Assembly: GCA_964592405.1 (NCBI GenBank) | Contig: CAZQBY010000002.1 | Location: forward strand, 58,353-122,352 | From: an uncultured archaeon | GTDB taxonomy: Archaea > Altiarchaeota > Altiarchaeia > JAFGQM01 | Reading direction: 5' to 3' | Length of the DNA stretch: 64,000 nt | Part shown: positions 4,178 to 33,768 of the stretch, piece after piece | Position numbering within the stretch: the stretch's first letter is position 1 | How the letters are laid out: each line of letters starts with the position of its first letter | Notes under the pieces: generated by a model | What the model saw: only the letters and a program-made list of their open reading frames with translations | Database searches by the model: none | Told to the model about the DNA's origin: nothing | Position numbers and translations under genes: made by a program

Positions 4178-5053
4178 ATGAAAACAGCCAGAGACGTGCT
4201 TCCACACTACTTTTCAATACTCAAAGGAGATGAGAGGGCAGGATATTTGGATGCGTGCATTGGAAAAAGGGCTTTGAAAGCCCATAAGATACTCGAGGAC
4301 TGTCATTTCTGTGAGCGCAGATGTGGAGTAGACAGGACAAGGGGCGAGAGAGGCTATTGTGGCGTCGGTAAAGCAGGAATAGCCTCCAGATTCCTGCATC
4401 ACGGCGAGGAGCCGGAGCTGGTCCCCTCATTCACCGTATTCTTCTCCGGATGCACCATGAAATGCCTCTACTGCCAGAACTGGGACATAAGCCAAAATCC
4501 AAAATCGGGAGTTTATGTGGAGCCGGAGCAACTGGCTGGAGAGATATCAACCATTGGCGCGCGCAATGTCAACTGGGTGGGTGGAGACCCCACCCCCAAT
4601 CTGTATTACATCCTTCAGGTGCTTGCCATATGTGAGCGCAGTATTCCACAAATATGGAATTCCAACATGTACTGTTCAAGGGAGGCGATGGAACTGTTGG
4701 ATGGAGTGATGGACGTCTATTTAACAGACTTCAAATACGGGAATGACACCTGCGCCAAGCGCCTTTCCGATGCCCCAAACTATCTTGAAATAGTAAAGAG
4801 AAATCATCTCCTTGCTTACAAGCAGGGGGACGTCCTAGTGCGGCACCTGGTCCTGCCGAACCACTTTGAGTGCTGCACCAAACCCATATTGCGATGGTTG
4901 TCAGAAAACCTACCAAATGCACGCATCAATATCATGGACCAGTATCGCCCGGAATGGCGCGCGCATGAGGTGCAGGAGCTCATGCACAAGCCGCTGCAGG
5001 AGTACAGGGATGCCGTCAAGCTTGGAACGGAACTCGAGCTGAACCTAGTGTGA
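4178..5053 (+). CDS. Radical SAM protein, PflX-like
   Basis: CHFCERRCGVDR, HHGEEPEL, CTMKCLYC and VRHLVLPNH motifs. Confidence 0.9.
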   Translation: MKTARDVLPHYFSILKGDERAGYLDACIGKRALKAHKILEDCHFCERRCGVDRTRGERGYCGVGKAGIASRFLHHGEEPELVPSFTVFFSGCTMKCLYCQNWDISQNPKSGVYVEPEQLAGEISTIGARNVNWVGGDPTPNLYYILQVLAICERSIPQIWNSNMYCSREAMELLDGVMDVYLTDFKYGNDTCAKRLSDAPNYLEIVKRNHLLAYKQGDVLVRHLVLPNHFECCTKPILRWLSENLPNARINIMDQYRPEWRAHEVQELMHKPLQEYRDAVKLGTELELNLV

Positions 5054-11424: not shown

Positions 11425-13455
11425 CTACTCGCTTAAAATCTTGGAGATATTACCTTCCTTGACAAACCGCACTACTTTATCCACAAAAGACTCTATTTTC
11501 GGCTCATGACTGACAATTATTGTCTGGCGATTGTTCAACTCATGAAGCACATCCCTGACAGAATCCATCTGATCATTTGAGAACCCGTCTGTTGGCTCAT
11601 CAAGTATAAGGAGGTCCTTGGTCCTTATTTTTTCAATCAGATCATTTATGACCCGGTTGAGGGCAAGCCTATAGGTTAGGGCTATAGCTGTTCTCTCGCC
11701 TCCGGACATAAAGGAGTAATCGGTCTCATAGCCGTTCTGCTCAATTACAACTGAAAAATTGTCATCTATGCGCGCACTCATATTGTCGTCCATTACGAGA
11801 GTGGAAAACCACTTCTGAAAGAGAGAGTTGAACTCATGTTGCACACTAACCATAACATGGCGCTCTATGTTTTCCATCAACTGGACGAAAGAGTCTGTCA
11901 GCCACTCATTGTATCTCATGTAGGATTCCATGAGCCTCTTCTTTTCCAGCTTATCTTTTATTTCCATGTCCAGCGATCTTATCTGCTCCTTCAAGCCAGC
12001 CGTTTTCTGCTTCACGGCCGATTCCCTCATCTGAAGCTCATTCACAATCCTTCTCAGCTCTTCAACTTTGTGTTGTTTCTTTTTGAAATCCTCTGGAGGA
12101 GTTTCATTTTTTATCTCCCGGGCAATGGAGTTTATCCTGTCGGCAAGTTCCCTGCGCCTTTTTTGTATGGATGTAATGTCCTGCATGTATTTTAACCTCT
12201 GGTCATTTAGACCTTTCTCCATCTCCCTCAGGGAATTCCTTTCTCTAAGGCGTGATTCATATCCTTGGACTTCCTCCAGTCGCTGCCGTAGTTTCTCTAG
12301 TTTTTTGCGCAACCCGTCCTGCCTCCTTCTAAGTTCCGCTATCTCAGATTTCTTTGCCTCAATGCCCCTCCTAAAAGACTTTCTATCAGCCACCGGCTGC
12401 TTACAGGTGCCACAAATGCCGGTCTTTAGAATCTCAGAAAGTGAAGCGACCTCTGTTTCGAGGGAGGCAATCTTGGAGATAATCTCCCTTTCACTCTTCT
12501 CTAAGGCAGATATGTCTGAAACTATCTCCTTCGCAGACTTTTCCGGCTTTTTGAGATCCTTGAAAGCTGAAAGTTTTTTGGCCAGCTCCTTCAGCTTGGC
12601 TCCAATGCCCTCCAGTGATTCTTCCAGTCGGGATTTTTGTCCATTCAGGGTCTCAAATTCGGCCTTGAGAGAGGCATACTCTTGTTTCTTCCTGCTGATG
12701 GCATCTGCCTTTTTCTGAAGCAGATCCAGTTCCTTTCTCTTGTCGTCAAGTATAGCCTGCTCCAGCTTTATCTTCTCTTCGAGCTCCCTGAGCACTTTTG
12801 TTTCGGCATTCAACTGGTCCGAAAGCCCCTTCCTCCGGGTCTGTTTTTCATCCAGATCCTGTATCGAACCGTGCAACTCCCTGATTCTGCCCCTCAGTTC
12901 GCGCGCAAACAGCTTGGCATTCTCGGCTATACGCTTGTATCTGTCCATACCAAAAAGCCTGCGTATAAGGTCAAGCCGCTCCTCCCGGTCAGCCTCTATG
13001 ATATGCCGCATCTGCTCCTGTGGGGTATAAACTGTATAGCGATATATAAGGGCACTGTTTTTCTTTAGGGCTTCTGGTGGATAACCCAGCAAGTCCAGCA
13101 CGAATGCGCGCAATTCCTGAGCAGTCATCTCTTTCTTCAGTCCATCAGCAATGATATAGCCGGAAGACTGGACAACTGTGTTCTTTCCCCTTTTGAGGGT
13201 TCTCCTGATAGTGTATTCCCTGCCACCAACCTCAAAGGTCAGCTCCACCGAACCCTGATCGCTTCCATGACGCAGGAGGCTGGCACCCGGCAGATTGGGC
13301 TTCTGTATGCCAAAGAGAGCAAAGTCTATTGCTAGAAGGATAGTACTCTTGCCGCTGCCTATGTCACCAGAGAGCAGCACAGACCCCTCTGGAAACCGTA
13401 TTTCGGCAGAATTATAACTGCGTATGTTCTCAAGCTTCAATCCCCTAAGGATCAT
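11425..13455 (-). CDS. rad50: Rad50 ATPase
   Basis: Walker A GDIGSGKST, coiled coil with CGTC zinc hook, MSGGE signature, LILDEPT Walker B. Confidence 0.95.
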   Translation of the reverse strand: MILRGLKLENIRSYNSAEIRFPEGSVLLSGDIGSGKSTILLAIDFALFGIQKPNLPGASLLRHGSDQGSVELTFEVGGREYTIRRTLKRGKNTVVQSSGYIIADGLKKEMTAQELRAFVLDLLGYPPEALKKNSALIYRYTVYTPQEQMRHIIEADREERLDLIRRLFGMDRYKRIAENAKLFARELRGRIRELHGSIQDLDEKQTRRKGLSDQLNAETKVLRELEEKIKLEQAILDDKRKELDLLQKKADAISRKKQEYASLKAEFETLNGQKSRLEESLEGIGAKLKELAKKLSAFKDLKKPEKSAKEIVSDISALEKSEREIISKIASLETEVASLSEILKTGICGTCKQPVADRKSFRRGIEAKKSEIAELRRRQDGLRKKLEKLRQRLEEVQGYESRLRERNSLREMEKGLNDQRLKYMQDITSIQKRRRELADRINSIAREIKNETPPEDFKKKQHKVEELRRIVNELQMRESAVKQKTAGLKEQIRSLDMEIKDKLEKKRLMESYMRYNEWLTDSFVQLMENIERHVMVSVQHEFNSLFQKWFSTLVMDDNMSARIDDNFSVVIEQNGYETDYSFMSGGERTAIALTYRLALNRVINDLIEKIRTKDLLILDEPTDGFSNDQMDSVRDVLHELNNRQTIIVSHEPKIESFVDKVVRFVKEGNISKILSE

Positions 13456-13509: not shown

Positions 13510-14754
13510 TTAGCTTCCTGCCCTCATCCGGCTGGATCTCTGACTGGATCTGCGGCTGGGTATCTGATCTGGCCTTCGAGATCCCGGCTCACCCTCCCTA
13601 CGCATCCTGAAAAGCGTTATGACAACAATCGCCGCTATCAGTGCCAGCGCAATTACAGATGGCCAGGATCCTACACCCGGGGCAGACTCCCCAGCCGGTG
13701 CAACAGGAGACTCTGATTTGAAGACAACTCCCGCAACCTCCCTTGCTGTCTCTTCCACCTCTTTAGATTCTTGTACCGGCTCTGACTGTCCGGACTCTTT
13801 TGTTGCCTCTGGCTCTCCAGCCGGTTGGCCCTCTGTCCCAGGACTTGCACTCGAGACCGCCCAATCACTATAGTGCCCCCAGTCATGGGCATACCACTCG
13901 TATTCTAGGCCATTGACGCCCGCCTGGTAGGCTGTGTGCAGAACATCAGCTATGGCATTGATTATGTTATTGATGTTTCTTCCAGTGCACTCTATGAACT
14001 GTGGGTCATTCAAATCATAGTTGTTATCCATCCATTCAGCTGAGCAGGAGCCGTCTTTCCTTCCAAGATAGGTGGCCACACCCACCCTCAACACAGCATC
14101 ATAAGGCGATATGATCTCCAGTCTGCCGTCAAATTTTATATAGCTGCCGTATACCTCCTGAAACTCATCCGAGGGATATGTTATATCGGTCAGCCTGAGC
14201 ATATAGGTTTCGTAGTCAATGCCATGCTTTTTGTTGTCCAGAACCCGTGTGAATAAACCAGCATCTGAGATATATGATGCGATGACACCTGCCCATTTGG
14301 ATGCCGTGCCGGTGGCCCCAGATGCCAGAGAGTTGATGAGGAGCTCATATCTTTTCATAGAGCGCTTGGCCAGAGATGCGTCCAGAAGATTTCCTTTTTC
14401 ATCAAACCTTAGATATTGAGCCAATAGGTCATTTATACTCTCGGCATAGCCACTGCTATCAGGGAGTTCTGTGCCATAAAGATATAGTCTCTCACTGACC
14501 CATTCAGCCTCCTCAGGGGCCTGCCTGGCGAGCATTTCCAAGGCGGCCTTAGCAAAATAGTCATGGGTGCCAAACATGTTGGTTCTTTGCCACAACATTG
14601 GGTCATCCACAAATGTGGGCTCCCCCCACAAAGAATTGCCATTGCCCCAAGAAGAAACAGGAGGGATCATAGATAATGCAAAAAGCATGATAAGGGATAT
14701 CACAAAGAACCTGAATCCGGCCCTGGTGGGTGTGATCACAAACCTGGCTTCCAT
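13510..14754 (-). CDS. Secreted, C-terminally membrane-anchored protein with Zn-dependent phospholipase C / S1-P1 nuclease-like fold
   Basis: Signal peptide ending VSS-W; GTHD, ELPD, SYISD and HGIDYE motifs; Pro/Glu-rich linker; transmembrane helix followed by an Arg-rich tail. Confidence 0.65.
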   Translation of the reverse strand: MEARFVITPTRAGFRFFVISLIMLFALSMIPPVSSWGNGNSLWGEPTFVDDPMLWQRTNMFGTHDYFAKAALEMLARQAPEEAEWVSERLYLYGTELPDSSGYAESINDLLAQYLRFDEKGNLLDASLAKRSMKRYELLINSLASGATGTASKWAGVIASYISDAGLFTRVLDNKKHGIDYETYMLRLTDITYPSDEFQEVYGSYIKFDGRLEIISPYDAVLRVGVATYLGRKDGSCSAEWMDNNYDLNDPQFIECTGRNINNIINAIADVLHTAYQAGVNGLEYEWYAHDWGHYSDWAVSSASPGTEGQPAGEPEATKESGQSEPVQESKEVEETAREVAGVVFKSESPVAPAGESAPGVGSWPSVIALALIAAIVVITLFRMRREGEPGSRRPDQIPSRRSSQRSSRMRAGS

Positions 14755-14760
14755 ATATTG

Positions 14761-16035
14761 TTAATCAAAGCTTTTATTTAAATCCCCCCTATCGACGGTC
14801 TTCCCACTGATTATTGCATAGGCCTGAGAGTTTAATCTCTCCTCAAATGCCGAACTGGTTTCCCCTTCTGCCTTTTCAGTGTCAAATGCCGTAATAAAGC
14901 GTTTGATAAGCCATGCCTGCTTCTCATCCTTGGCATATTCCTCTATCAGGCGCCGTTCAAGGTTTTCCACGGTATCATGTGAAACCCTGACTTTTCCATA
15001 TTCTCTTGAGCTAAGCCCGCTGGTATTACGGAGGACAGCATACGCACCGTTCTCGTAGGCCATCTCCATATACCTTCGAAAATCTATATCAGTTGGCCGG
15101 CCTTCCTTAAGCGTGCCAAATACGCGCCAGAGGACTATCTGCCCGCCTTCTGATCCAGTCGCCGAGAGTCCAGAATTCAGGGTCTCTTTCGAACTGCTGG
15201 ATACTATCCTTTCCACACTCTGTGCAAGCTGAGCCTCTACCTCCCCGGGAGTCCTGCCATCAGCATTAATTTCATGGCATAAGATCGGATGAAGCACAAG
15301 TCTAATAAATGTGGGTTTGTTGTTATCTACAATAAAGAATCCGCATCCACTATCCGACAGATCCCACATCTCCCTGAAGTTGCAGGGAAAGATGGGTCCG
15401 GGGAATATCAGCCTCCCTCCATAGAAGTCAGTTTCGCTCCTGCGGTGTATATGTCCGCCGGCATAGTAGTCAAAACCCTTGGGAAGTAGCGACGCTGGTA
15501 TGCCCTCCACACGCTTCATATCCTCTGGTAGATAGTCCCTTATGCCTGAATGGAACATAAATATCTTATAGCCCTCACCCCTGCTTATGGAGCGGTCGAG
15601 TTCCCGATAGTATTGTTCTTCCAGGCCACCCTTCCTGCCAAACATGCCAACAATCATTGCTCCGGATTTGTCTTTGGTTGGATTCAGGACCAGTTTTCCA
15701 TTCTCTTCACTCCCCCTAGCCACATTCGTAATGAGCTCGGCATTCTCAAACACCCTGAGCATGGTTTTGCCTGAAGGGGAATAGTCATGCGAGCCGCAAA
15801 TTGTATAAACAGGAATTCCTGCTCTTTTGAGCAGGCTCAGCTTTTTTGAGACAAATGCCAGTGTATCAAGGGGTGGGACGGAGGTGTCAAACAGGTCGCC
15901 ACTTATGAGAATAAAATCAACATTCCGCTCTATGCAGATATCTACTGCCATCTCGAATGCCCTGAGATTTGCCTTCTGCAACTTTGGATCCCGCCACCCC
16001 CCCAGATGGAGGTCGGCCATGTGTGCAAATATCAT
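14761..16035 (-). CDS. mre11: Mre11 nuclease
   Basis: ADLHLG, GDLFD, GSHD and GGHIH motifs; ATG at 16035. Confidence 0.93.
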   Translation of the reverse strand: MIFAHMADLHLGGWRDPKLQKANLRAFEMAVDICIERNVDFILISGDLFDTSVPPLDTLAFVSKKLSLLKRAGIPVYTICGSHDYSPSGKTMLRVFENAELITNVARGSEENGKLVLNPTKDKSGAMIVGMFGRKGGLEEQYYRELDRSISRGEGYKIFMFHSGIRDYLPEDMKRVEGIPASLLPKGFDYYAGGHIHRRSETDFYGGRLIFPGPIFPCNFREMWDLSDSGCGFFIVDNNKPTFIRLVLHPILCHEINADGRTPGEVEAQLAQSVERIVSSSSKETLNSGLSATGSEGGQIVLWRVFGTLKEGRPTDIDFRRYMEMAYENGAYAVLRNTSGLSSREYGKVRVSHDTVENLERRLIEEYAKDEKQAWLIKRFITAFDTEKAEGETSSAFEERLNSQAYAIISGKTVDRGDLNKSFD

Positions 16036-16070
16036 TGTGACTACACTAAAATTATTCGGACTCACAAAAA

Positions 16071-16673
16071 TTACGGTTTTTCCTCCTCCCAGTCGGTATT
16101 TACATATCTGGTTATGTATTCAATAGGGACCTTGTTTATTGGAACCTGATGTACACTGCCATCCATAGCCCTAACCTCTGGTATGTGCCCGGGTTTCAGG
16201 CGGACCACTTCATAATCGCCGATTATGCCATGCTTCTTTGCCTTTTTGGCAGTCTCCGATATGTCCCTTATATACTCTTCGCTGACATTATTTAACATAC
16301 CTCCCGGGATTATGGTCAACTTTGTTTCGCTAGGCTCCCATATCCCAAGCCTGCTTTTCCCATGCCTTCCCTTAATCGCCCTCAGCATGAACCCCAGAAA
16401 ATCCTCCGGGTGGTGAAGCCGGTTTGTGACATTGACGACGTCTCCGCCCAACAGCCTGCTTATATCCCTCTCTGTGGGAAACTCTCGCATAGCCTTGGCG
16501 GACTGAGTAACCCTGTGACCAACAACTGCTCCCGGTTTTCCCGGCCTGTGAAGTACTATACCGGTGCAGATGCTGATTGGGGTATATATGGCATGGTGTT
16601 TGTTTGAAGCAACCACATAGCCGGACCCCAGCACCATTTTTTTTATCCTAGGCCTTGGAGACTTTGGAGGCAT
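16071..16673 (-). CDS. CheD/CNF1-fold deamidase-like orphan, copy 1
   Basis: YTPISICTGIV...VVGH and KLTIIPGGM align by eye with CheD TLGLGSCVAV...AMAH and AKIAGGASM; ATG 16673 lies 2 nt after the herA stop. Confidence 0.65.
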   Translation of the reverse strand: MPPKSPRPRIKKMVLGSGYVVASNKHHAIYTPISICTGIVLHRPGKPGAVVGHRVTQSAKAMREFPTERDISRLLGGDVVNVTNRLHHPEDFLGFMLRAIKGRHGKSRLGIWEPSETKLTIIPGGMLNNVSEEYIRDISETAKKAKKHGIIGDYEVVRLKPGHIPEVRAMDGSVHQVPINKVPIEYITRYVNTDWEEEKP

Positions 16674-16675
16674 TT

Positions 16676-18214
16676 TTATGAGAATTCCGACAGATCGGTC
16701 TTTGTCTGCCTGACAGACGATTGACATGAACCCGAGATAAAATCCCTATCAAACAGAGGGATGTGGACTGGAATGGCAAACTTTGTAAAGGTGGAGGTTA
16801 TCAGCGCCTCTCCCTTGTCCAGTGAGGCAATATTGCGTCCGTCCTTGCTAAGGTCTTGGGATGCACTCTCGATAATGGCACGCCTCTCCGGCTCCATCTC
16901 AATGCCCAATATTATCTTGGTGTTCATGTTGGCTAGGACCTCGCGCGGTATAAGGGATGGGAGCTGCGTTATCGCGATGAGGCCTATCTTGAACTTTCTA
17001 CCCTCCCGCGCAATGGTAGAGAAGATGTTCGGCCCGGCCTGCAACACGTCCTTCCCAAGGACGCGTGGAGCCTCCTCTATTATTATGGATATCACGGGCT
17101 TTGTGGAGAGCTTGCCATTCTTCTTGTAGTACTTGTACCTGTCCAGCGCCTCTGAGGCGACCATTGAGGATATGAGGAGTTCCAGCTCGCTGGAGAGTGG
17201 GGATGTGTCCACTATTACAGTCTTGCCCATCTCCAGTGCAGAAACCATGTTCTCCAGTGTATTCTCATACTTCTCCTCTGCAAAGACTCCCTCGCACTTG
17301 ACGGTACCGTCCTCCGATGATATGCCCAGTATGTTGAGTTTCCTTATCAGCACGGCAAGCGTTTCCTCCTTGACACCGGTAGCCGGTTCACCACTCAGTA
17401 TATTTGCCACCCACTCCTCCTTGTCCAATTTGTAGTATGTGAACAGCGCATCACGCTGGGCAGGTGAGAGATTGAGAACCCCTTGGAAGAACCACGGCTT
17501 CAGCAGGTGATAGTTTATCCTGAGCGTTTCCGCGCCAGCCGGCGGATTGGTGGAGTAATAGACAATTTTTTCTCCTGCCCTTGGGTGATTCCCCAGCCCC
17601 GCCTCTTTTCCGCCGGGGCCGTTGTAGTACTCATCATGCGGGTCAAGTATCAGCATACCGCAATAGTTCTTGTCAATGGCAGACCAAGACATTATTCTGA
17701 CAAGATTCGACTTGCCACGCCCGGTGGTGGCTGATATGAGGACATGGTGAGAGAGCACCTTCCTACCATCCAGCTCGACTGGTATGCCCATGTCTTTTGA
17801 TCCGGAGCGGATGTTGCCGACATAGAGGGCATTCTCCTCCCTGCCCAGGAAGTCCAGATCAGCCTTGTTTATCCTCCTGACAGGGCTGAAGAAGCTCGGC
17901 AACGTCTTGGGCATGCGCGCAATGCCTGCGTTTATGGACACCAGCCCTTTGACTTCTGCTAGAACATAATTGCGCAAGTCCGCCTCCATAAAGCCTAGAT
18001 CAGAGCCATGGCCCTCCAGTTCCATGCCGGAAAGCAGTTCCAGCGACTTTGGAGGTATCTGTGAGGCATAAAGGAGGTTGTATACCTGCAGAATGGTTTT
18101 TTTGTTGCCGTTCTCTGTCACAAGCAGCTCGCCCAGCTCCAGCTCCTCACCGCTTTTCTGGCGCACTAGAAGCTCGCCAAATTCCCCAGATAGAATCTGC
18201 CCAACTACTTCCAC
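16676..18214 (-). CDS. herA: HerA bipolar helicase
   Basis: N-terminal HAS barrel, [14 protein letters not shown] and [10 protein letters not shown]...ITQLP motifs. Confidence 0.93.
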
Positions 18215-18247: not shown

Positions 18248-18964
18248 TCACTGCCTTTCGACTAGTTTGAAGGGTATGTTTTGAAAATTTCTTTTGTAGA
18301 ATTTCTTTTTCCTCGACATCACAGCTTTGGACACCTTGGGGTGCTCGATTACTATCCCAAGTATCTGTTCTGGGCCGAATTTCTCGATTCCCCCCTGCTC
18401 TGGCTTTCCTGAACGTGTCATAGGGGCCATGATATGGAGAGTATATCTGTCACCCCTTATGGACTTGATAGACCTGGCATAAGGCAGATTTGGTGATGCC
18501 CAAGAGCTTGGGATTTTTCTCTCGTAAACCCTGTCAACATTGGGCCACCTTTCGGACCTGAATCCCTCTGAGAGTATAATTTTCAAAACCCCAAAGCTAT
18601 CTATCTTGTATGTTAGTGGGCGGATACCATGCATAACAGGATTCTGGTGCACAACAAAGCGCATTTTGCCCTTTGGGGAGCGGGCCACCCTAAAGTCCAC
18701 AACACCGTTTGGAAGACCAAAACTGAATATGTGCTGGCTTGCACTCCTCGTCTTCAGGTCCTGCATGCGGCGAATCACAGCCTCTTTCAGCCTTTTTGCA
18801 GTTTTCATCGCATGCGTTCTCTCGGAAAATTGCACCCCTGAATCCTCAAAAGCCGAGATTATCTTCTTTAGCGGCGTCCTGCGCGCATCTGTCAGTGTGC
18901 CCTCAAAAATGTGAAACGGCCTAGCCCCCCTAATCCTCTGTCTATGAAATCTTCTTATGGGCAT
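18248..18964 (-). CDS. Orphan basic protein with ADP-ribosyltransferase-like C-terminal domain
   Basis: VMHGI...ILSEGFRS...SWASPNLPYA...YTLHI...PEQILGI follows the ART/Tpt1-like motif order. Confidence 0.55.
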   Translation of the reverse strand: MPIRRFHRQRIRGARPFHIFEGTLTDARRTPLKKIISAFEDSGVQFSERTHAMKTAKRLKEAVIRRMQDLKTRSASQHIFSFGLPNGVVDFRVARSPKGKMRFVVHQNPVMHGIRPLTYKIDSFGVLKIILSEGFRSERWPNVDRVYERKIPSSWASPNLPYARSIKSIRGDRYTLHIMAPMTRSGKPEQGGIEKFGPEQILGIVIEHPKVSKAVMSRKKKFYKRNFQNIPFKLVERQ

Positions 18965-18987: not shown

Positions 18988-20094
18988 TTAAACCATTCTG
19001 TCCAGCCAGTCATGGGCATCACTTGCAGCGAGCAGGTCCGTGAAATCCTGAAAATCGCCGGTTCTGGATATCTCAGAGAATAACAGCATGCGAAGACTGT
19101 CCAGACCCTCCCGGCGGATTCGGGCATTCTTGTCTGCATCAATGAGGCCATATGGATATCCCGGAAATGTGATATCCCTGGAATTTGCAGCAATAGCAGA
19201 CATTATCCTTTCTTTCTGATCCTCCTGTCCCTGCAGTACTTCCACCCTGAGGGTATATCGGCTTTGTGGATGGAAGCAGGCAAAGTTCAGGTCTGCCCTG
19301 TGTGCCGTATCAGTGATATCCACAATGTTCTCATAATACCATGGCGCATGCACTCCATTTTCGCGTGCAAGTCTGTTTATGGCCACTGTAAGCGGTAGCC
19401 CGGATGTCGTATAGAGATGGGAGGTCTTTGAGATACCGCAAAACAGCACATTCTGCCTGTGTGCGGCATCATAGGCAGCCTCCGCATACCCAATCTGGTT
19501 TGTGTATGGTGCATGGAGCGTTCCGTCCCTGATGAATATACTGCCATCTGGCAGGGCACGACAGACAAAGGAGGCATAGTTCCACTCGGCAAAAGAGCGC
19601 GCAACATCGCCAACCCGTGGTATTCTTATCTGTTCCAAACCCTCTCTTATTGTCTTATCATAGGAATCAAAAACCAGATCTTCTTCATTGGGCAGATATT
19701 GGGCATGCTCCTTATGCAACGGAATAAAAGTGTTTTTATATTCTATTTGATTACCATTGCCCTCCCCATCCACACCGGCGGCAGTTGTGATGACAAAAAA
19801 TTCCAGCCTGTTTGGAATACCCAGCCTGATGCGCTTGTTATCCTGAAAACAGCTTACATATATCCTTTCAAAGTGTACTGCAAACGATGGCGCCTGTATC
19901 AACGCCATATTGCCGCCATCCAGAAAAGCTATAATTGTATCACGGTCGTGTGGGGAGGGAATCCTCCTGAAGTTCTTTGCATCAAAGTCCCTTGCCTTAT
20001 AATGGTCTTCCGGCCGGAAACTGGGCCTACCTAGGGGTAAATCAACTACCTGATCAGCTATATGTGCAACCCTCTTGGCAGCATCGGTTATCAT
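18988..20094 (-). CDS. nurA: NurA nuclease
   Basis: AFLDGG, IFIRDG, GISKTS and GYPYGL motifs; position upstream of herA. Confidence 0.9.
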   Translation of the reverse strand: MITDAAKRVAHIADQVVDLPLGRPSFRPEDHYKARDFDAKNFRRIPSPHDRDTIIAFLDGGNMALIQAPSFAVHFERIYVSCFQDNKRIRLGIPNRLEFFVITTAAGVDGEGNGNQIEYKNTFIPLHKEHAQYLPNEEDLVFDSYDKTIREGLEQIRIPRVGDVARSFAEWNYASFVCRALPDGSIFIRDGTLHAPYTNQIGYAEAAYDAAHRQNVLFCGISKTSHLYTTSGLPLTVAINRLARENGVHAPWYYENIVDITDTAHRADLNFACFHPQSRYTLRVEVLQGQEDQKERIMSAIAANSRDITFPGYPYGLIDADKNARIRREGLDSLRMLLFSEISRTGDFQDFTDLLAASDAHDWLDRMV

Positions 20095-21068
20095 CAGAAG
20101 GTTTCCGAAGGCAGTATTTGTTTATCCACCGCAGATATAATCAGATACTTTCTCTGGTTGTTTTTGAGATTGGCCACAAGCGCCTTGTATTTTGGATAAT
20201 ATATGGTCTGTGTTTCAATAGTTATACTCTCTTCCATAAGGGTTTTGTAGACTGGAGGGCGCTGGATTATCTGAGGCGTAAGGACCCTGGTGGTATAATC
20301 CTGCGGAGCAGCCTGCGTTCCAAGGACAGCACTTCTTGGTATGGGTTTTTCAGGGTTGAACTGGACCGTGGGTTTATCCCTGATATAGTTTTCCAGTACC
20401 GGTTTTTCAGCCCAGTTCAGATCATAATAAATGCTTTTCTCCACTACCTTGTTTACAATTTGTGAAACAGTCAGCTTGAGGGTTGGTGCAGATGAGCTGA
20501 AAAAGCCGCCGGCAGAGGGAGGTGATTCTATGTCATGCACCTTACTATCCATTATGACCTTGATAGTATCCGGATCCAGCGGCAGATTAAACTCCTTGAG
20601 GACTTCAAATATGCCCCGGTAGGTAGCCCTTATAAGGTGTATGGGCTCGTATATTTTTGTCAGTGACTCAACACGAAGGTCCGTGGGTTGCGGGCCGCCA
20701 AAGAAGCCGGAGAATGCCTTGGTCTTGAGGCCCCCGGATTCCAGTGCATCTTCGGCAGCCTTAAAATCCATGGATTCCTTCAGAGCCAGTATAACCGGTG
20801 GCTTTGTTATGATCTTCTTGACATCCAGTGCAGGGACTTGGGATGGTTTTGGGGGCGCTTTTGGAGGTGTTTTTGGAGACGGTTTCGGAGGCGGTACCTG
20901 CCTCTGGGCCTGAGCCGGTTTTTGTGCAGCTGGCTGTGGGCCGGTCACCGGCTCTTTGACTTTTTGGCCGGATGTAGTGAAGGGCACTATTTTCGGAACC
21001 GCAGCACCGCAATTTGTGCAGAACTTAGCATCATCGTGCAGTTGCATCCCGCATCTGGGGCAGAACAT
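20094..21068 (-). CDS. Double zinc-ribbon protein with Pro-rich linker
   Basis: CPRCG...FCTNCG; PPPKPSPKTPPKAPPKP linker; stop overlaps the nurA ATG. Confidence 0.8.
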   Translation of the reverse strand: MFCPRCGMQLHDDAKFCTNCGAAVPKIVPFTTSGQKVKEPVTGPQPAAQKPAQAQRQVPPPKPSPKTPPKAPPKPSQVPALDVKKIITKPPVILALKESMDFKAAEDALESGGLKTKAFSGFFGGPQPTDLRVESLTKIYEPIHLIRATYRGIFEVLKEFNLPLDPDTIKVIMDSKVHDIESPPSAGGFFSSSAPTLKLTVSQIVNKVVEKSIYYDLNWAEKPVLENYIRDKPTVQFNPEKPIPRSAVLGTQAAPQDYTTRVLTPQIIQRPPVYKTLMEESITIETQTIYYPKYKALVANLKNNQRKYLIISAVDKQILPSETF

Positions 21069-21120: not shown

Positions 21121-21960
21121 GTGGATGTCTTCTTTGATCCTGTGTTCCTGAAGCATGATACCGGTTTCCACCCGGAAAACGCCGGCAGGCTGGAGCTGAT
21201 ATTGGACTCACTGGATGAGGATAAGCTGAAGAAGCCGCGCAATGGAGAGGGGTTCCTCAAGCTGGCCCACACGCCTGATTACATCACCAAGGTCAGGCAG
21301 GCCTGCAAAGATGGCGGTTATCTTGACATGGACACTCCTGTCTCGCCTGACACCTACAAAGCGGCATGCATGGCAGTCGGGGCTGCAGTAGATGCCTCAG
21401 AATCCGAAGGCTTCGCGCTGGTGAGGCCACCGGGGCACCACGCCTTCGCGGACCGCGGGTCTGGGTTCTGCATATTCAACAACATGGCCATAGCGGCCAT
21501 CAGGCTAGCTGAAAAGGGTAAAAGGGTCTTCATCTTGGACATAGATGTACACCATGGAAACGGAACGGAGGCATTGGTGTTGGGAAGGGAAAACATAGAG
21601 TTCCTCTCCATACATCAGAGCCCTCTTTATCCAGGAAGCGGGCTGACAGACCGGCCCCCAAATGTGATTAACATTCCCCTTCCGCCGAACACTGGTGACG
21701 AGGGTTACATTGCTGCTCTAGAAGAGAGGGTCGAACCAGAGATAAAAAAATTTGATCCGGATAATGTTGGAGTCTCAGTCGGCTTTGACGCCTACTATCT
21801 GGACTGTGGTTCTGTCTTAGGTAATGCCCTGACTATCACACAGAAGACCTATAAAAGGATCAGGGATATGCTCATACCTTATAAAACCTTCTTCACACTT
21901 GAAGGCGGATACCACCCCCGGAGCCTGCTGGAGGGTGCACACGCGCTGATGGACTTATGA
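21121..21960 (+). CDS. Histone deacetylase family (class II-like) amidohydrolase
   Basis: HPEN, RPPGHHA, GFCIFNN, DIDVHHGNGT, GFD and EGGY motifs. Confidence 0.93.
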   Translation: MDVFFDPVFLKHDTGFHPENAGRLELILDSLDEDKLKKPRNGEGFLKLAHTPDYITKVRQACKDGGYLDMDTPVSPDTYKAACMAVGAAVDASESEGFALVRPPGHHAFADRGSGFCIFNNMAIAAIRLAEKGKRVFILDIDVHHGNGTEALVLGRENIEFLSIHQSPLYPGSGLTDRPPNVINIPLPPNTGDEGYIAALEERVEPEIKKFDPDNVGVSVGFDAYYLDCGSVLGNALTITQKTYKRIRDMLIPYKTFFTLEGGYHPRSLLEGAHALMDL

Positions 21961-22613
21961 TGACCAGAAAGCATAAGACGAGGGCCATGACACCAGCAAG
22001 GAAGTTCAGGATATCTGCAAGTAATCCTGTATTAATGTCTGAAGTTAAGGTAGTAAAGGAAAGGGAAGGAGCAACGAGCTTTGGCACAGGGCCGTGCTTC
22101 ACGCTGGTCTTCCAGCGCAGGGGCAAAGTTGTAAGGGAGAGGGGACCGCATGGCGTTAGGAGAAAGCGGGGGAAACCCACAAGCGTCATCTGGCATGCCA
22201 TGCCGACTTATATCTACTACAACCCCCGGCAGGGGCCGGAGGGTAGTAAAGAGGTAGCGAAAAAGCTGAAGGAGGCAGGGGGGCTCCGAAAGTATGAAAC
22301 TGATGAATTTCACCCAAAGACTGTTACAGACGGCATACTGGACTATCTTTACGGCAGGGGGAGAGGAAGTGCGCGGATATCTGTAACCATCATACCGGGC
22401 AGGATGACCCTGAATAGTCCGCTTTTTTCAAGATCTATGGATGAGATAATAAAGCTCCTGCACATGTACAAAAAGGAAGGCAAGATACACAGCCTCCGCA
22501 CCCGTGGGATATCAAAGGGCAAGGGAAGTCTTATCACACATGTGGACCAACACGGAAGGATATACAGAGACTCATTGAAGCCGTGGAAGAGAAGAGGGGA
22601 GGGTAGAGCATAA
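21957..22613 (+). CDS. CheD/CNF1-fold deamidase-like orphan, copy 2
   Basis: VLMSEVKVV...SFGTGPCFTLVF...VIWHAMP...VTIIPGRM; ATGA overlap with the deacetylase stop. Confidence 0.65.
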   Translation: MMTRKHKTRAMTPARKFRISASNPVLMSEVKVVKEREGATSFGTGPCFTLVFQRRGKVVRERGPHGVRRKRGKPTSVIWHAMPTYIYYNPRQGPEGSKEVAKKLKEAGGLRKYETDEFHPKTVTDGILDYLYGRGRGSARISVTIIPGRMTLNSPLFSRSMDEIIKLLHMYKKEGKIHSLRTRGISKGKGSLITHVDQHGRIYRDSLKPWKRRGEGRA

Positions 22614-24266: not shown

Positions 24267-25736
24267 ATGCCGCTGGGTGGTCTGAAATGGAGGGATGAGC
24301 TAGAGCCCAAGGAGTTCAGGAGAATCAAGAGCGAGGTCCAGATTCTGGGCATAGATGATGCGCCCTTCGGGAGGAAGGACAAGAATGTCAAGATAGTTGC
24401 AGTCCTTACGCGGGGTGCCAAGATGCTGGACGGCGTCTTTCACTCCAGTATAAAAAAGGATGGGCTTGATGCCACAGACAGGATAATCCAGCTTGTAAAG
24501 GACATAAAGCGTGAGAACGTGCGCACCATACTGCTGGACGGTATCACATACGGCGGCTTCAACACTGTTGACATCCAGAGAGTTTACCATGAGACTGGTA
24601 TTCCGGTAATTGTTTCTATGCAGAAGCGCCCGGACCACGCAAAGATACATGCAGCCCTGAGGAATCTTGAGAATGCAGATCTGAGGAAGAGTATGATAGA
24701 TGCAGCCGGCAGGGTATATGAGATCCGGCTGGATGGTAACAGAAAGGTTTATATGCAGACTGCCGGGATAAGGAGGGAAGATGCAGAGGAGATTATCAGG
24801 CTCACAACAGTTAATGGCCTGGTGCCGGAGCCAATACGGGCAGCCCATATGATAGCCAAGGGTGCCTACACTGAGATACCAAAAGAGCAGCGCAATGATG
24901 AATGGCTGCATATGAAAGCGTATAACTATGTGAGGGATACCCACAGAAAGGTCAAAAAGTGGAAGAGGAAAACCTTTCCGGGCTTTGCCGGCGAAGTAGT
25001 CAGCTTCCTTTTTGCCCTTTTGCTCGCCTGGCTCTTCATACAGATGTTGGGCTGGATGCTAAACACATCCTCACCACTGGTGGTTGTAGAATCAGAGTCT
25101 ATGGTGCATACCGGCGACTGGATGACATGGTATTTCGACCATAATCTTGACCCAATGACCTATGGCTTTGGCAGCGGGATGGGCGTCGGCGATATCATAA
25201 TCGTAAAGGGAGACAATCCTGATGATATAAACATAGGGGATGTAATCCTGTACACCAAATACAGCTCCAGGACAATCGGCGGCGAGCCGGTTATCCACAG
25301 GGTAGTTGGTATTGTGGGCATAAACGGTGATGAGGTTTACACTGAGGGCGCGGTAAGATGGGACGGAGAAAGGATTATTACACCATGTAGCAGCAGTTCT
25401 AGTTACAGCCTTGATGAGATAAGGAGCCTGTATTCGGGCGATGCTATAAACCGTGTAGTGCCGGGGGTGAAGGACGATCTGACCAGCTTCCGGCTTTTCA
25501 TAACAAAGGGGGACAACCCCAAAAACAATCCCCGGGAAGACCAGTGCAGATTTGGAGGCTCTCCGATGATATCCTATCCCGTCCATGAAAGAACTGTTGT
25601 TGGGAGGGCCAAACTTGACATTCCTTATATCGGATACGTCAAGCTGGGTCTGGTCTGCGCCTACCGCTTTGCCACAGGCAACGTCTGCGGCTGCAGGTGC
25701 TGGTGGGCCGCCGACCATCCCAACTGCTGCAGGTAA
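24267..25736 (+). CDS. Fusion of DUF99 (endonuclease V-like) domain and signal peptidase I (S26)
   Basis: N half: ILGIDDAPF, LLDGITYGGFN and PEPIRAAH. After a transmembrane helix: VVESESM, GDIIIV, VIHRVV and FITKGDN. Confidence 0.85.
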   Translation: MPLGGLKWRDELEPKEFRRIKSEVQILGIDDAPFGRKDKNVKIVAVLTRGAKMLDGVFHSSIKKDGLDATDRIIQLVKDIKRENVRTILLDGITYGGFNTVDIQRVYHETGIPVIVSMQKRPDHAKIHAALRNLENADLRKSMIDAAGRVYEIRLDGNRKVYMQTAGIRREDAEEIIRLTTVNGLVPEPIRAAHMIAKGAYTEIPKEQRNDEWLHMKAYNYVRDTHRKVKKWKRKTFPGFAGEVVSFLFALLLAWLFIQMLGWMLNTSSPLVVVESESMVHTGDWMTWYFDHNLDPMTYGFGSGMGVGDIIIVKGDNPDDINIGDVILYTKYSSRTIGGEPVIHRVVGIVGINGDEVYTEGAVRWDGERIITPCSSSSSYSLDEIRSLYSGDAINRVVPGVKDDLTSFRLFITKGDNPKNNPREDQCRFGGSPMISYPVHERTVVGRAKLDIPYIGYVKLGLVCAYRFATGNVCGCRCWWAADHPNCCR

Positions 25737-32769: not shown

Positions 32770-33378
32770 ATGAAACTCACAGATGAACAGGGAAAGAAGG
32801 CAGTGCATATAGCCAGAAGGACTGTGGACACCTTTGTCAGAGGGAGGGGGAGGTATGTGCCAGAGGAATTTCCAGAAATCTTTAAAGAGAAGCGTGGGGT
32901 GTTTGTAACCCTGCAGAAATATCCGGGTGGAGAGCTTCGGGGCTGTATAGGCTTTCCTGAACCAGTGGCACAATTGATAGACGCACTCATTGATTCGGCC
33001 ATATCGGCAGCGTCCAGGGATCCAAGATTCGAGCCGGTCAGGGAGGATGAACTGGATGGAATAACCGTTGAGGTCTCAGTTCTAACGCCTCCGCAGTTGC
33101 TGAAAGTAAAGGATACACAAGATTACCCGAAGAGAATCAGTATAGGCAGAGACGGGTTGATTATAAGGCAGGGATTTGCATCCGGGTTGCTGTTGCCGCA
33201 GGTCCCGGTAGAGTGGGGATGGGATGAGGAGGAATTCCTCTCACAGACATGCTGGAAGGCAGGGCTTCCGCCAGACGCATGGCTAGACCCGGAAGCTGAG
33301 ATCTATTCATTCCAAGCACAAATTTGGACGGAGAAGACGCCAAGAGGAGAGGTTGTGAAAAAGGAACTAGATAAGTAG
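32770..33378 (+). CDS. AmmeMemoRadiSam protein A (AMMECR1 family)
   Basis: GVFVTL, LRGCIG and GLLLPQV motifs. Confidence 0.93.
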   Translation: MKLTDEQGKKAVHIARRTVDTFVRGRGRYVPEEFPEIFKEKRGVFVTLQKYPGGELRGCIGFPEPVAQLIDALIDSAISAASRDPRFEPVREDELDGITVEVSVLTPPQLLKVKDTQDYPKRISIGRDGLIIRQGFASGLLLPQVPVEWGWDEEEFLSQTCWKAGLPPDAWLDPEAEIYSFQAQIWTEKTPRGEVVKKELDK

Positions 33379-33768
33379 ATATGGCTTCTCCTCAATCACC
33401 CTTTTATATTTCCTATAAAAGCTGTTGACAGTTTTGGTATCTATCCGTTTTCCAAAGCACTCATGGGGCACAAGGGCGCCACTGAAAGTCTTTGGCACGT
33501 GGAGAAGCTCGTGAATAAGTGTCTTATCCTGTTCCTCTTCTGACATATTATCAAATTTTTCGGAGATTACTTCTATTATATAATATGCCCTGAGGTAGAG
33601 GGCCTGTTGCCATATCCTTGGCAACCCCCATATACGCGCAACGGCACGTGTCTTTGCACCGGTAGAACGCATGCAGATTATATGCTTGCCGCTAACATGT
33701 TTCAGATCCAACGCACGCACCATGGCCCTTATCCTGTGGTCAATATCCGGAGCCAGCTCAGTCTTCAT
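33367..33768 (-). CDS. Putative metallopeptidase (HExxH)
   Basis: ARIWGLP, YIIEVISE and LIHELLH motifs. Confidence 0.8.
   Translation of the reverse strand: MKTELAPDIDHRIRAMVRALDLKHVSGKHIICMRSTGAKTRAVARIWGLPRIWQQALYLRAYYIIEVISEKFDNMSEEEQDKTLIHELLHVPKTFSGALVPHECFGKRIDTKTVNSFYRKYKRVIEEKPYLLI

Follow-up and report, generated by a model that had tools for sequence, protein, structure and literature searches.

A rare archaeal protein family with a predicted CheD/NTAN1-type fold, encoded between herA and mre11

Introduction

The deamidases of the CNF1 fold described so far are mostly chemotaxis adaptors, enzymes of N-degron pathways, or toxins by which bacteria switch NTPases or helicases. Mre11-Rad50 and HerA-NurA, on the other hand, constitute the core double-strand-break resection machine of archaea and serve as the prokaryotic model for eukaryotic MRN. 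We know of no enzymatic deamidation, or related Cys-hydrolase modification, that regulates Mre11-Rad50 or HerA-NurA, and a full-text literature search found no link between a CheD-like or CNF1-like enzyme and HerA, Mre11 or Rad50. Here, we describe a gene, termed X, that lies between herA and mre11 on a 64,000-nucleotide stretch of contig CAZQBY010000002.1 from an uncultured archaeon; this whole stretch is referred to as the window. X occupies positions 16071-16673 of the minus strand and encodes a protein of 200 residues, a putative Cys-His amidohydrolase of the CheD/NTAN1 fold (CNF1/YfiH-like). The fold is known and the chemistry is probably so; what is new is the sequence family and the functional neighbourhood of X.

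A preliminary description of this DNA had taken X for a CheD/CNF1-type deamidase outside any chemotaxis context, the first of two copies, and had suggested an effector function. How these proposals fared is told below along with the evidence.

Predicted fold and putative active site

The structure of X was predicted with AlphaFold2 (AF2). An alignment of 11 sequences gave a predicted local distance difference test score (pLDDT) of 87.9 and a predicted template modelling score of 0.87, the pLDDT of the five models ranging from 84.8 to 87.9, while an alignment of 3 sequences gave a pLDDT of 34 only. When the model was compared with the PDB by Foldseek, the first-ranked match was CheD of T. maritima (2f9z_C; E=1.1e-5, probability 1.00, 177 columns) with a template modelling (TM) score of 0.53 normalised to the query and 0.66 to the target. 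Human NTAN1 (6a0e and its mutants) ranked second with E=8e-5 to 1e-3, probability 1.00 and up to 196 columns, followed in third place by YfiH/DUF152 (E about 9e-3, TM about 0.3, probability 0.92-0.94). The top match in the viral library BFVD is a Moumouvirus protein named ‘CheD chemotaxis protein’ (E=1.6e-5), and three mimivirid proteins come next; CNF1 and BLF1 are not among the matches listed. On the basis of the model, X is firmly predicted to have the alpha-beta-beta(-alpha) sandwich fold common to CheD, NTAN1, CNF1, BLF1 and YfiH. This fold family was missed by Pfam, HMMER and HHalign, yet it was recovered from an alignment of just 11 sequences.

The secondary structure elements of the model follow one another as three strands, the Cys, a strand, a strand carrying the His, a helix, a strand carrying KLTII, a helix, and three strands, an order that we take to be colinear with the CheD structure over the whole length of CheD. 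DSSP assigns strands to residues 37-43 and 46-54 with a two-residue turn between them, which makes residue 36 the cross-strand neighbour of residue 53. The putative nucleophile Cys36 (codon at 16566-16568, minus strand) immediately precedes the first of these strands, and the putative general base His53 (codon at 16515-16517, minus strand), located at Cys+17, belongs to the second. Judging from the register of the hairpin, the two side chains should face each other across it. Both peptides on which the preliminary description relied are encoded where it had placed them: translation of 16515-16568 on the minus strand yields CTGIVLHRPGKPGAVVGH, and KLTIIPGGM is encoded at 16296-16322 of the same strand. 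The latter peptide, which forms strand 118-122 and the following loop and is weakly conserved in the family, had been equated with the AKIxGGAxM strand of CheD. It does occupy the right topological place, that of the CheD AKIAGGA strand, but its GG is not conserved across the family.

A small family restricted to uncultured archaea

An HMMER scan of 1.84 billion representative proteins produced 13 matches to the X-family profile, 11 of them real and 2 repetitive coiled-coil artefacts, while a word-indexed set of 5.8 billion proteins contained four members. All of the ~11 representatives come from uncultured archaea. Profile searches with a 4-sequence alignment found the family in only 2 metagenome-assembled genomes of GTDB, both already known, and nothing in metagenome contigs beyond a contig identical to L001 (L numbers denote the loci of the relatives of X). 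The herA-mre11 region of the window was traced to seven public runs, six labelled ‘hydrothermal vent metagenome’ and one ‘marine metagenome’. The family is not represented by any model of Pfam, NCBIfam or PADLOC. X founds a new and very rare sequence family. Its restriction to few uncultured archaea, mostly from vent-type metagenomes, and its apparent loss in at least one close relative mean that its general importance may be small.

Conservation was assessed on an alignment of 10 sequences sharing 31-64% identity, in which miscalled starts and one frameshift were corrected from the contigs. The invariant positions are L15, L41, G45, P47, G48, H53, L74, G77, P89, A145, G149, G172 and W195, and S17, H26, P32, C36, V50, D91, M96, G110, I151 and E197 are nearly so. 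The Cys-His dyad that the preliminary description had seen in X is kept throughout most of the family: Cys36 is present in 9/10 sequences and His53 in 10/10, separated by the 17 residues of CheD and NTAN1 wherever both occur, and they are embedded in the motif P.S.C.G..L...G.PG.VVAH. Conservation also extends to the C-terminal extension, where W195 is found in all sequences and E197 in 9/10.

The gene itself is real, coding and under purifying selection. Comparison of X with its orthologue in L001 (64% identity) gave a dN/dS (ratio of nonsynonymous to synonymous substitution rates) of ~0.11 for the whole gene and of 0.13 when restricted to its first 40 codons, dS being saturated. The longest open reading frame that holds X extends over 16071-16727 (minus strand, 218 codons) and contains KKMVLGSGYVVASNKHHAIYTPISICTGIVLHRPGKPGAVVGH. 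The start at 16673, which corresponds to M19 of this longer frame and was the one chosen in the preliminary description, is the correct one, because the 18 codons 5' of 16673 overlap the 3' end of herA and because the homologues start with MPPK..., MPPH... or MAKRKH... directly after the herA stop.

Sequence relationship to CheD

In contrast to the structural comparison, sequence statistics do not connect X with CheD. X has no relevant match in Pfam or NCBIfam, and none of the 11 family members matches CheD (PF03975), NTAN1, CNF1 or DUF152 in Pfam at E<=1. Searches of all PDB sequences, 2F9Z included, with phmmer and with the family profile likewise returned nothing relevant. In addition, 28 authentic CheD proteins of Thermotogota (PF03975) were aligned into a profile, against which the X family scored E=0.68 and a probability of 0.07% in hhalign. 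The sole alignment obtained, non-significant at that E value, lays X 12-44 on CheD 2-35 and Cys36 on Cys27, which is the register drawn by eye in the preliminary description. By these statistics, the by-eye match does not rise above chance; the resemblance to CheD that had been claimed fails as a sequence alignment and holds for the predicted structure.

Pfam was run on 58 of the 67 window open reading frames of at least 90 residues, which comprise replication, repair and biosynthetic genes, and found no CheA, CheW, CheY, CheB, CheR, CheC or methyl-accepting chemotaxis protein (MCP) domain among them, in agreement with the earlier statement that the window holds no che or MCP gene. X could nevertheless be the divergent CheD of an organism whose chemotaxis system is encoded elsewhere in the genome, given that CheD is the top structural match and that the inspection covers 64 kb of that genome. 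This idea is barely credible in view of the failure of every one of the 11 members to match PF03975, the hhalign result, the lack of che and MCP genes in the scanned frames, the position of X between herA and mre11, which is fixed across lineages, and the family profile, which retrieved no CheD from the 1.84 billion proteins. Our firm conclusion is that X lies outside the CheD family and, on the 64 kb inspected and the flanks of its relatives, does not belong to a chemotaxis system.

Genomic neighbourhood

X lies inside an operon on the minus strand that has the order ZnR-nurA-Z-herA-X-mre11-Y-rad50, where ZnR stands for a zinc-ribbon protein. The gene upstream of X is herA (16676-18214, minus strand; Pfam PF01935, E=1.5e-23), encoding a HerA/DUF87 hexameric ATPase, and the DNA alignment shows 2 nt between the herA stop and the ATG of X. 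Downstream lies mre11 (14761-16065, minus strand; calcineurin-like phosphoesterase, Pfam PF00149). The sequence and the starts of the homologues make it probable that mre11 truly begins at the ATG at 16035 (MIFAHMADLH), which leaves 35 nt between the X stop and mre11.

This arrangement recurs on separate contigs of divergent relatives. Among ten distinct relatives (31-64% identity), herA upstream and mre11 downstream are both found in six, namely L001, L004, L006, L007, L009 and L014. The order is herA-X-mre11 in L001 and the equivalent L002 and L012, and Z-herA-X-mre11 in L009. L004/L010 run from the 3' end of herA through X, mre11 and Y to rad50, with further sequence between Y and rad50; L007 runs from the herA 3' end through X and mre11 to Y; L014 comprises the herA 3' end, X and mre11. 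The most complete counterpart is L006/L011 with ZnR-nurA-herA-X-mre11-Y-rad50. Of the remaining relatives, L013 has mre11 only (X-mre11), L008 has herA only (herA-X followed by another gene), and L015 shows no recognisable herA or mre11 neighbour within 995 bp; the tenth is a fragment whose flanks lie outside this count. We also note that positions 1-200 of L013, where herA would be expected, carry a tandem repeat encoding ...MTPMHTTPKK*HRCTLRQRNDTDAHYAKE..., which may be an assembly artefact at the contig end.

The junction of X and mre11 is particularly tight in L006, L007 and L009, in which the stop codon of X and the start codon of mre11 share nucleotides (gaATGA); judged from these sequences, translation of the two genes is coupled there. 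The terminal W-E-E codons of X (TGG GAR GAR) also constitute a Shine-Dalgarno-like GGAGG element and the start context for mre11 (window 16071-16095; L006 10540-10550; L007 1412-1422; L009 2727-2740). The C-terminal EWEE may thus owe some of its conservation to nucleotide-level constraint from the mre11 start. The EWEE motif is also kept in L015 and L008, where no gene follows closely.

Taken together, these data make X a constant part of an expanded form of the herA-mre11-rad50-nurA operon that is specific to the lineage. Describing X as outside any chemotaxis context was thus true, but the preliminary description overlooked the repair operon around the gene, which is evident from the conserved synteny and the ATGA overlap. 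The position of X in the herA-mre11 operon suggests that the break-repair machinery has a protein-modifying accessory which had gone unrecognised.

The same neighbourhood bears on the proposal that X is an effector, i.e., a glutamine deamidase in the manner of CNF1 or BLF1, whose fold class it shares, either secreted or of toxin-antitoxin type. X is a single 200-residue domain with a basic, non-hydrophobic N-terminus; it has no signal peptide or delivery domain. No mobile-element genes are found near X, and PADLOC, with which a role in a defence system was examined, reports nothing for X, the second copy, Y, Z or the zinc-ribbon protein, the only matches being generic HerA models. The purifying selection on X and the syntenic conservation of the housekeeping repair operon around it also argue against such a role. 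The effector part of the preliminary description is therefore not upheld, and we regard a toxin as highly improbable.

The other genes of the operon are as follows. The zinc-ribbon protein (20094-21068, minus strand; Pfam Zn_Ribbon_1) is encoded first and has orthologues upstream of nurA in L001 and L006; it contains a long Pro/Lys-rich linker, and its stop region overlaps the nurA start at 20094. The nurA nuclease gene (18988-20094, minus strand; Pfam PF09376) is followed by Z (18248-18964, minus strand), which encodes a protein of 238 residues with function unassigned, located between nurA and herA and having orthologues in L001 and L009. The Z protein is basic and has no counterpart in L006; it has no Pfam match, and a profile search of the PDB came back empty. 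Y (13510-14754, minus strand; 414 residues, function unassigned) is placed between mre11 and rad50, as in L004, L006 and L007, and is kept there in at least 4 lineages. It has hydrophobic N- and C-terminal segments joined by a Pro/Glu/Ser-rich linker; a membrane-anchored protein would be an odd member of a DNA-repair operon. Y has no Pfam or NCBIfam match, and its PDB profile search was empty too. The last gene, rad50 (11425-13455, minus strand), encodes an SMC-like ABC ATPase with a CxxC zinc hook, identified through Pfam AAA_23, SMC_N and SbcC Walker B and by alignment.

A distant paralogue

The preliminary description had counted X as copy 1, implying a second copy, and a very divergent one was indeed located at 21957-22613 on the plus strand, in a unit divergent from the repair operon. 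This copy 2 encodes a protein of 218 residues without a Pfam match. Although tblastn with X across the window detected no significant paralogue, the hidden Markov model of the X family gave copy 2 as its best non-self match, non-significant at E=0.4 and colinear through all motifs. An hhalign comparison of the X family with a three-sequence copy-2 profile returned P=5.2e-5 and a probability of 67% over 158 columns, and the alignment pairs Cys with Cys and His with His, so that both residues are retained; the hairpin between them carries an insertion of ~16 residues in copy 2. The copy-2 family compared with CheD gave a non-significant result. The existence of a distant paralogue family of X is, on these profile comparisons, credible.

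The start of copy 2 overlaps the stop of a gene of the histone deacetylase (HDAC)/acetylpolyamine-amidohydrolase family (21121-21960, plus strand; Pfam PF00850, E=5.8e-64). Judged from this overlap, copy 2 is translationally coupled to the HDAC-family gene. The same order is found in L006 (3973-6150, minus strand), where two tandem paralogues come after the HDAC-family gene.

Proposed function

We favour the reading that X is an active cytoplasmic cysteine amidohydrolase whose substrate or partner is a co-expressed repair protein, and judge its chance of being right to be about even. Catalysis, amide chemistry and the identity of the substrate are what we infer from the predicted fold, the conserved dyad and the operon. 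X would share its mRNA with HerA and Mre11. His53 on the neighbouring hairpin strand would activate Cys36, which would then attack the side-chain carboxamide of a Gln or Asn in Mre11, Rad50, HerA, NurA or a protein bound to the DNA end; ammonia would be released and a Glu or Asp left on the substrate. Such a deamidation could tune assembly or ATPase activity, as is done by CheD for receptors, CNF1 for Rho GTPases and BLF1 for eIF4A. The translational coupling with X makes Mre11 the first candidate for substrate or partner. HerA and Rad50 are further candidates, since deamidases of the CNF1 fold classically target NTPases or helicases, BLF1 for instance deamidating the helicase eIF4A at Gln339 (PMC8960835).

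Several observations weigh against this reading. The triads of CheD (C27/H44/T21) and NTAN1 (C75/H92/S69) combine a His at Cys+17 with a Ser or Thr at Cys-6 (PMC7022378). The equivalent of CheD Thr21 and NTAN1 Ser69 in the X family, position 30, is aromatic, being Tyr, Trp or Phe; this does not exclude catalysis, because a backbone carbonyl serves at the third triad position in CNF1 (PMC7022378). In L001, which carries the orthologue of the closest sister species, one nucleotide is missing at about 4735-4745, after the Cys codon and before that of the His; GGTATAGTA has become GGCAT-GTG, and the gene is split. Since three assemblies (L001, L002 and L012) show it identically, the deletion is probably real, and X of this lineage is probably a true pseudogene or a split gene. 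L014 has CGC (Arg) at about 125-135, where the others have the Cys codon TGC, and may represent a pseudo-enzyme or a low-coverage error. Both changes may be real losses, less likely errors. The frameshift implies that X activity is dispensable or has been lost in some lineages, and the two changes together weaken the case for catalysis as a universally essential property. The family is also tiny, and its conservation statistics come from n=10 sequences. Finally, the CheD recognition motif [AS]xx[QE][QE]xx[AS] occurs in no protein of the operon, a result that is uninformative with ~0.1 occurrences expected by chance. The idea behind this search, that the antiparallel coiled coil of Rad50 carries the motif, was set aside.

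The replacement of Cys by Arg in L014, the frameshift in the L001 lineage and the missing Ser/Thr at Cys-6 would all be accommodated if X served the Mre11-Rad50 or the HerA-NurA complex without catalysis, as an adaptor or as a regulatory subunit. CheD, which binds CheC independently of deamidation, offers a model for this, and the tight translational coupling with mre11 suggests a stoichiometric complex. Yet His53 is invariant and Cys36 is kept in all but one sequence despite the low overall identity, the flanking GxPG..V.AH is conserved, and the distant paralogue family likewise keeps the Cys and the His. An adaptor is therefore an unlikely, though not negligible, explanation.

A Cys-His hydrolase or transferase with other chemistry is also conceivable, for which a peptidase of DNA-end adducts, a transglutaminase or polyaminase, and an NTAN1-like N-terminal amidase come into consideration. 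YfiH/PgeF cleaves a peptide bond, and DNT, a relative of CNF1, is a transglutaminase/polyaminase. In the fold comparison, NTAN1 and YfiH come directly after CheD, and the NTAN1 alignments, at 196 columns, cover nearly the whole of X. Mre11-Rad50 is generally known to process protein-blocked ends, and copy 2 adjoins the HDAC/acetylpolyamine-amidohydrolase-family gene. CheD nonetheless provides the best and most complete structural match (target TM 0.66), and no operon protein has Asn or Gln after its initial Met. All three options fit the observations equally well, and we consider them, like the adaptor, unlikely but not negligible.

A wider version of the deamidation proposal, tentative and rather improbable in our judgement, is that X and its paralogue regulate genome maintenance as an archaeal system in which proteins are enzymatically deamidated or linked to polyamines by transglutamination. 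End resection would be switched through the action of X on a glutamine in Mre11, Rad50 or HerA, while copy 2 would act with the adjacent HDAC/acetylpolyamine-amidohydrolase-type enzyme on chromatin or repair proteins. If true, it would be the first case, in any domain of life, of Mre11-Rad50 being controlled by enzymatic deamidation. A CNF1-fold member between herA and mre11 would extend deamidase chemistry to DNA repair, and the proposal is directly testable.

Other features of the window

An ARAGORN scan of positions 1-64000 found no tRNA, and an Rfam search of the whole 64 kb at the gathering threshold was empty. Two further genes were observed. The frame at 24267-25736 (plus strand) encodes 489 residues with an Endonuclease dU domain (PF01949) at residues 23-200; the extension of ~290 residues beyond it includes a hydrophobic segment and has a tail rich in Cys. 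L006 encodes a protein of equal length. A small frame at 33367-33768 (minus strand) matches ‘putative phage metallopeptidase’ (PF18894, E=4e-21) and lies among housekeeping genes (thiC, AMMECR1).

Comparison with known systems

Like X, CheD (PF03975; T. maritima 2F9Z) is a small, single-domain, cytoplasmic protein, and in both the Cys stands where a strand begins and is followed, 17 residues on, by the His of the hairpin partner. In contrast to CheD, with which it shares no detectable sequence similarity, X has an aromatic residue at the Thr21 position, a ~35-residue insertion after the His strand (about 55-88) and a ~25-residue C-terminal extension (about 179-200) ending in EWEE. The genomic partners of X are herA and mre11 instead of che or MCP genes.

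Human NTAN1 (6A0E) shares with X the spacing of 17, between Cys75 and His92, and both proteins extend C-terminally beyond the CheD core. In NTAN1, Glu260 of the appended region binds the alpha-amino group of the substrate; the extension of X, with W195 and E197, is at most a candidate equivalent of it. Unlike X, NTAN1 is a eukaryotic protein of about 310 residues that belongs to the Arg/N-degron pathway, and the TM score normalised to NTAN1 is only 0.32. X lacks a Pfam match, and its operon offers no evident N-terminal Asn substrates.

CNF1 and BLF1 belong to the same fold superfamily and apply Cys-His chemistry to Rho GTPases and eIF4A, respectively; HerA and Rad50 are likewise NTPases or helicases. 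In contrast to X, which is operon-internal and of housekeeping type, both toxins act in virulence after secretion or delivery and have additional domains or targets in the host. YfiH/PgeF (DUF152), comprising peptidoglycan-editing and purine-nucleoside enzymes, is of the same superfamily and gives a weaker Foldseek match. These enzymes differ from X in being larger and in having a zinc-binding Cys/His/His site and small-molecule or muropeptide substrates, and X has no sequence match to them.

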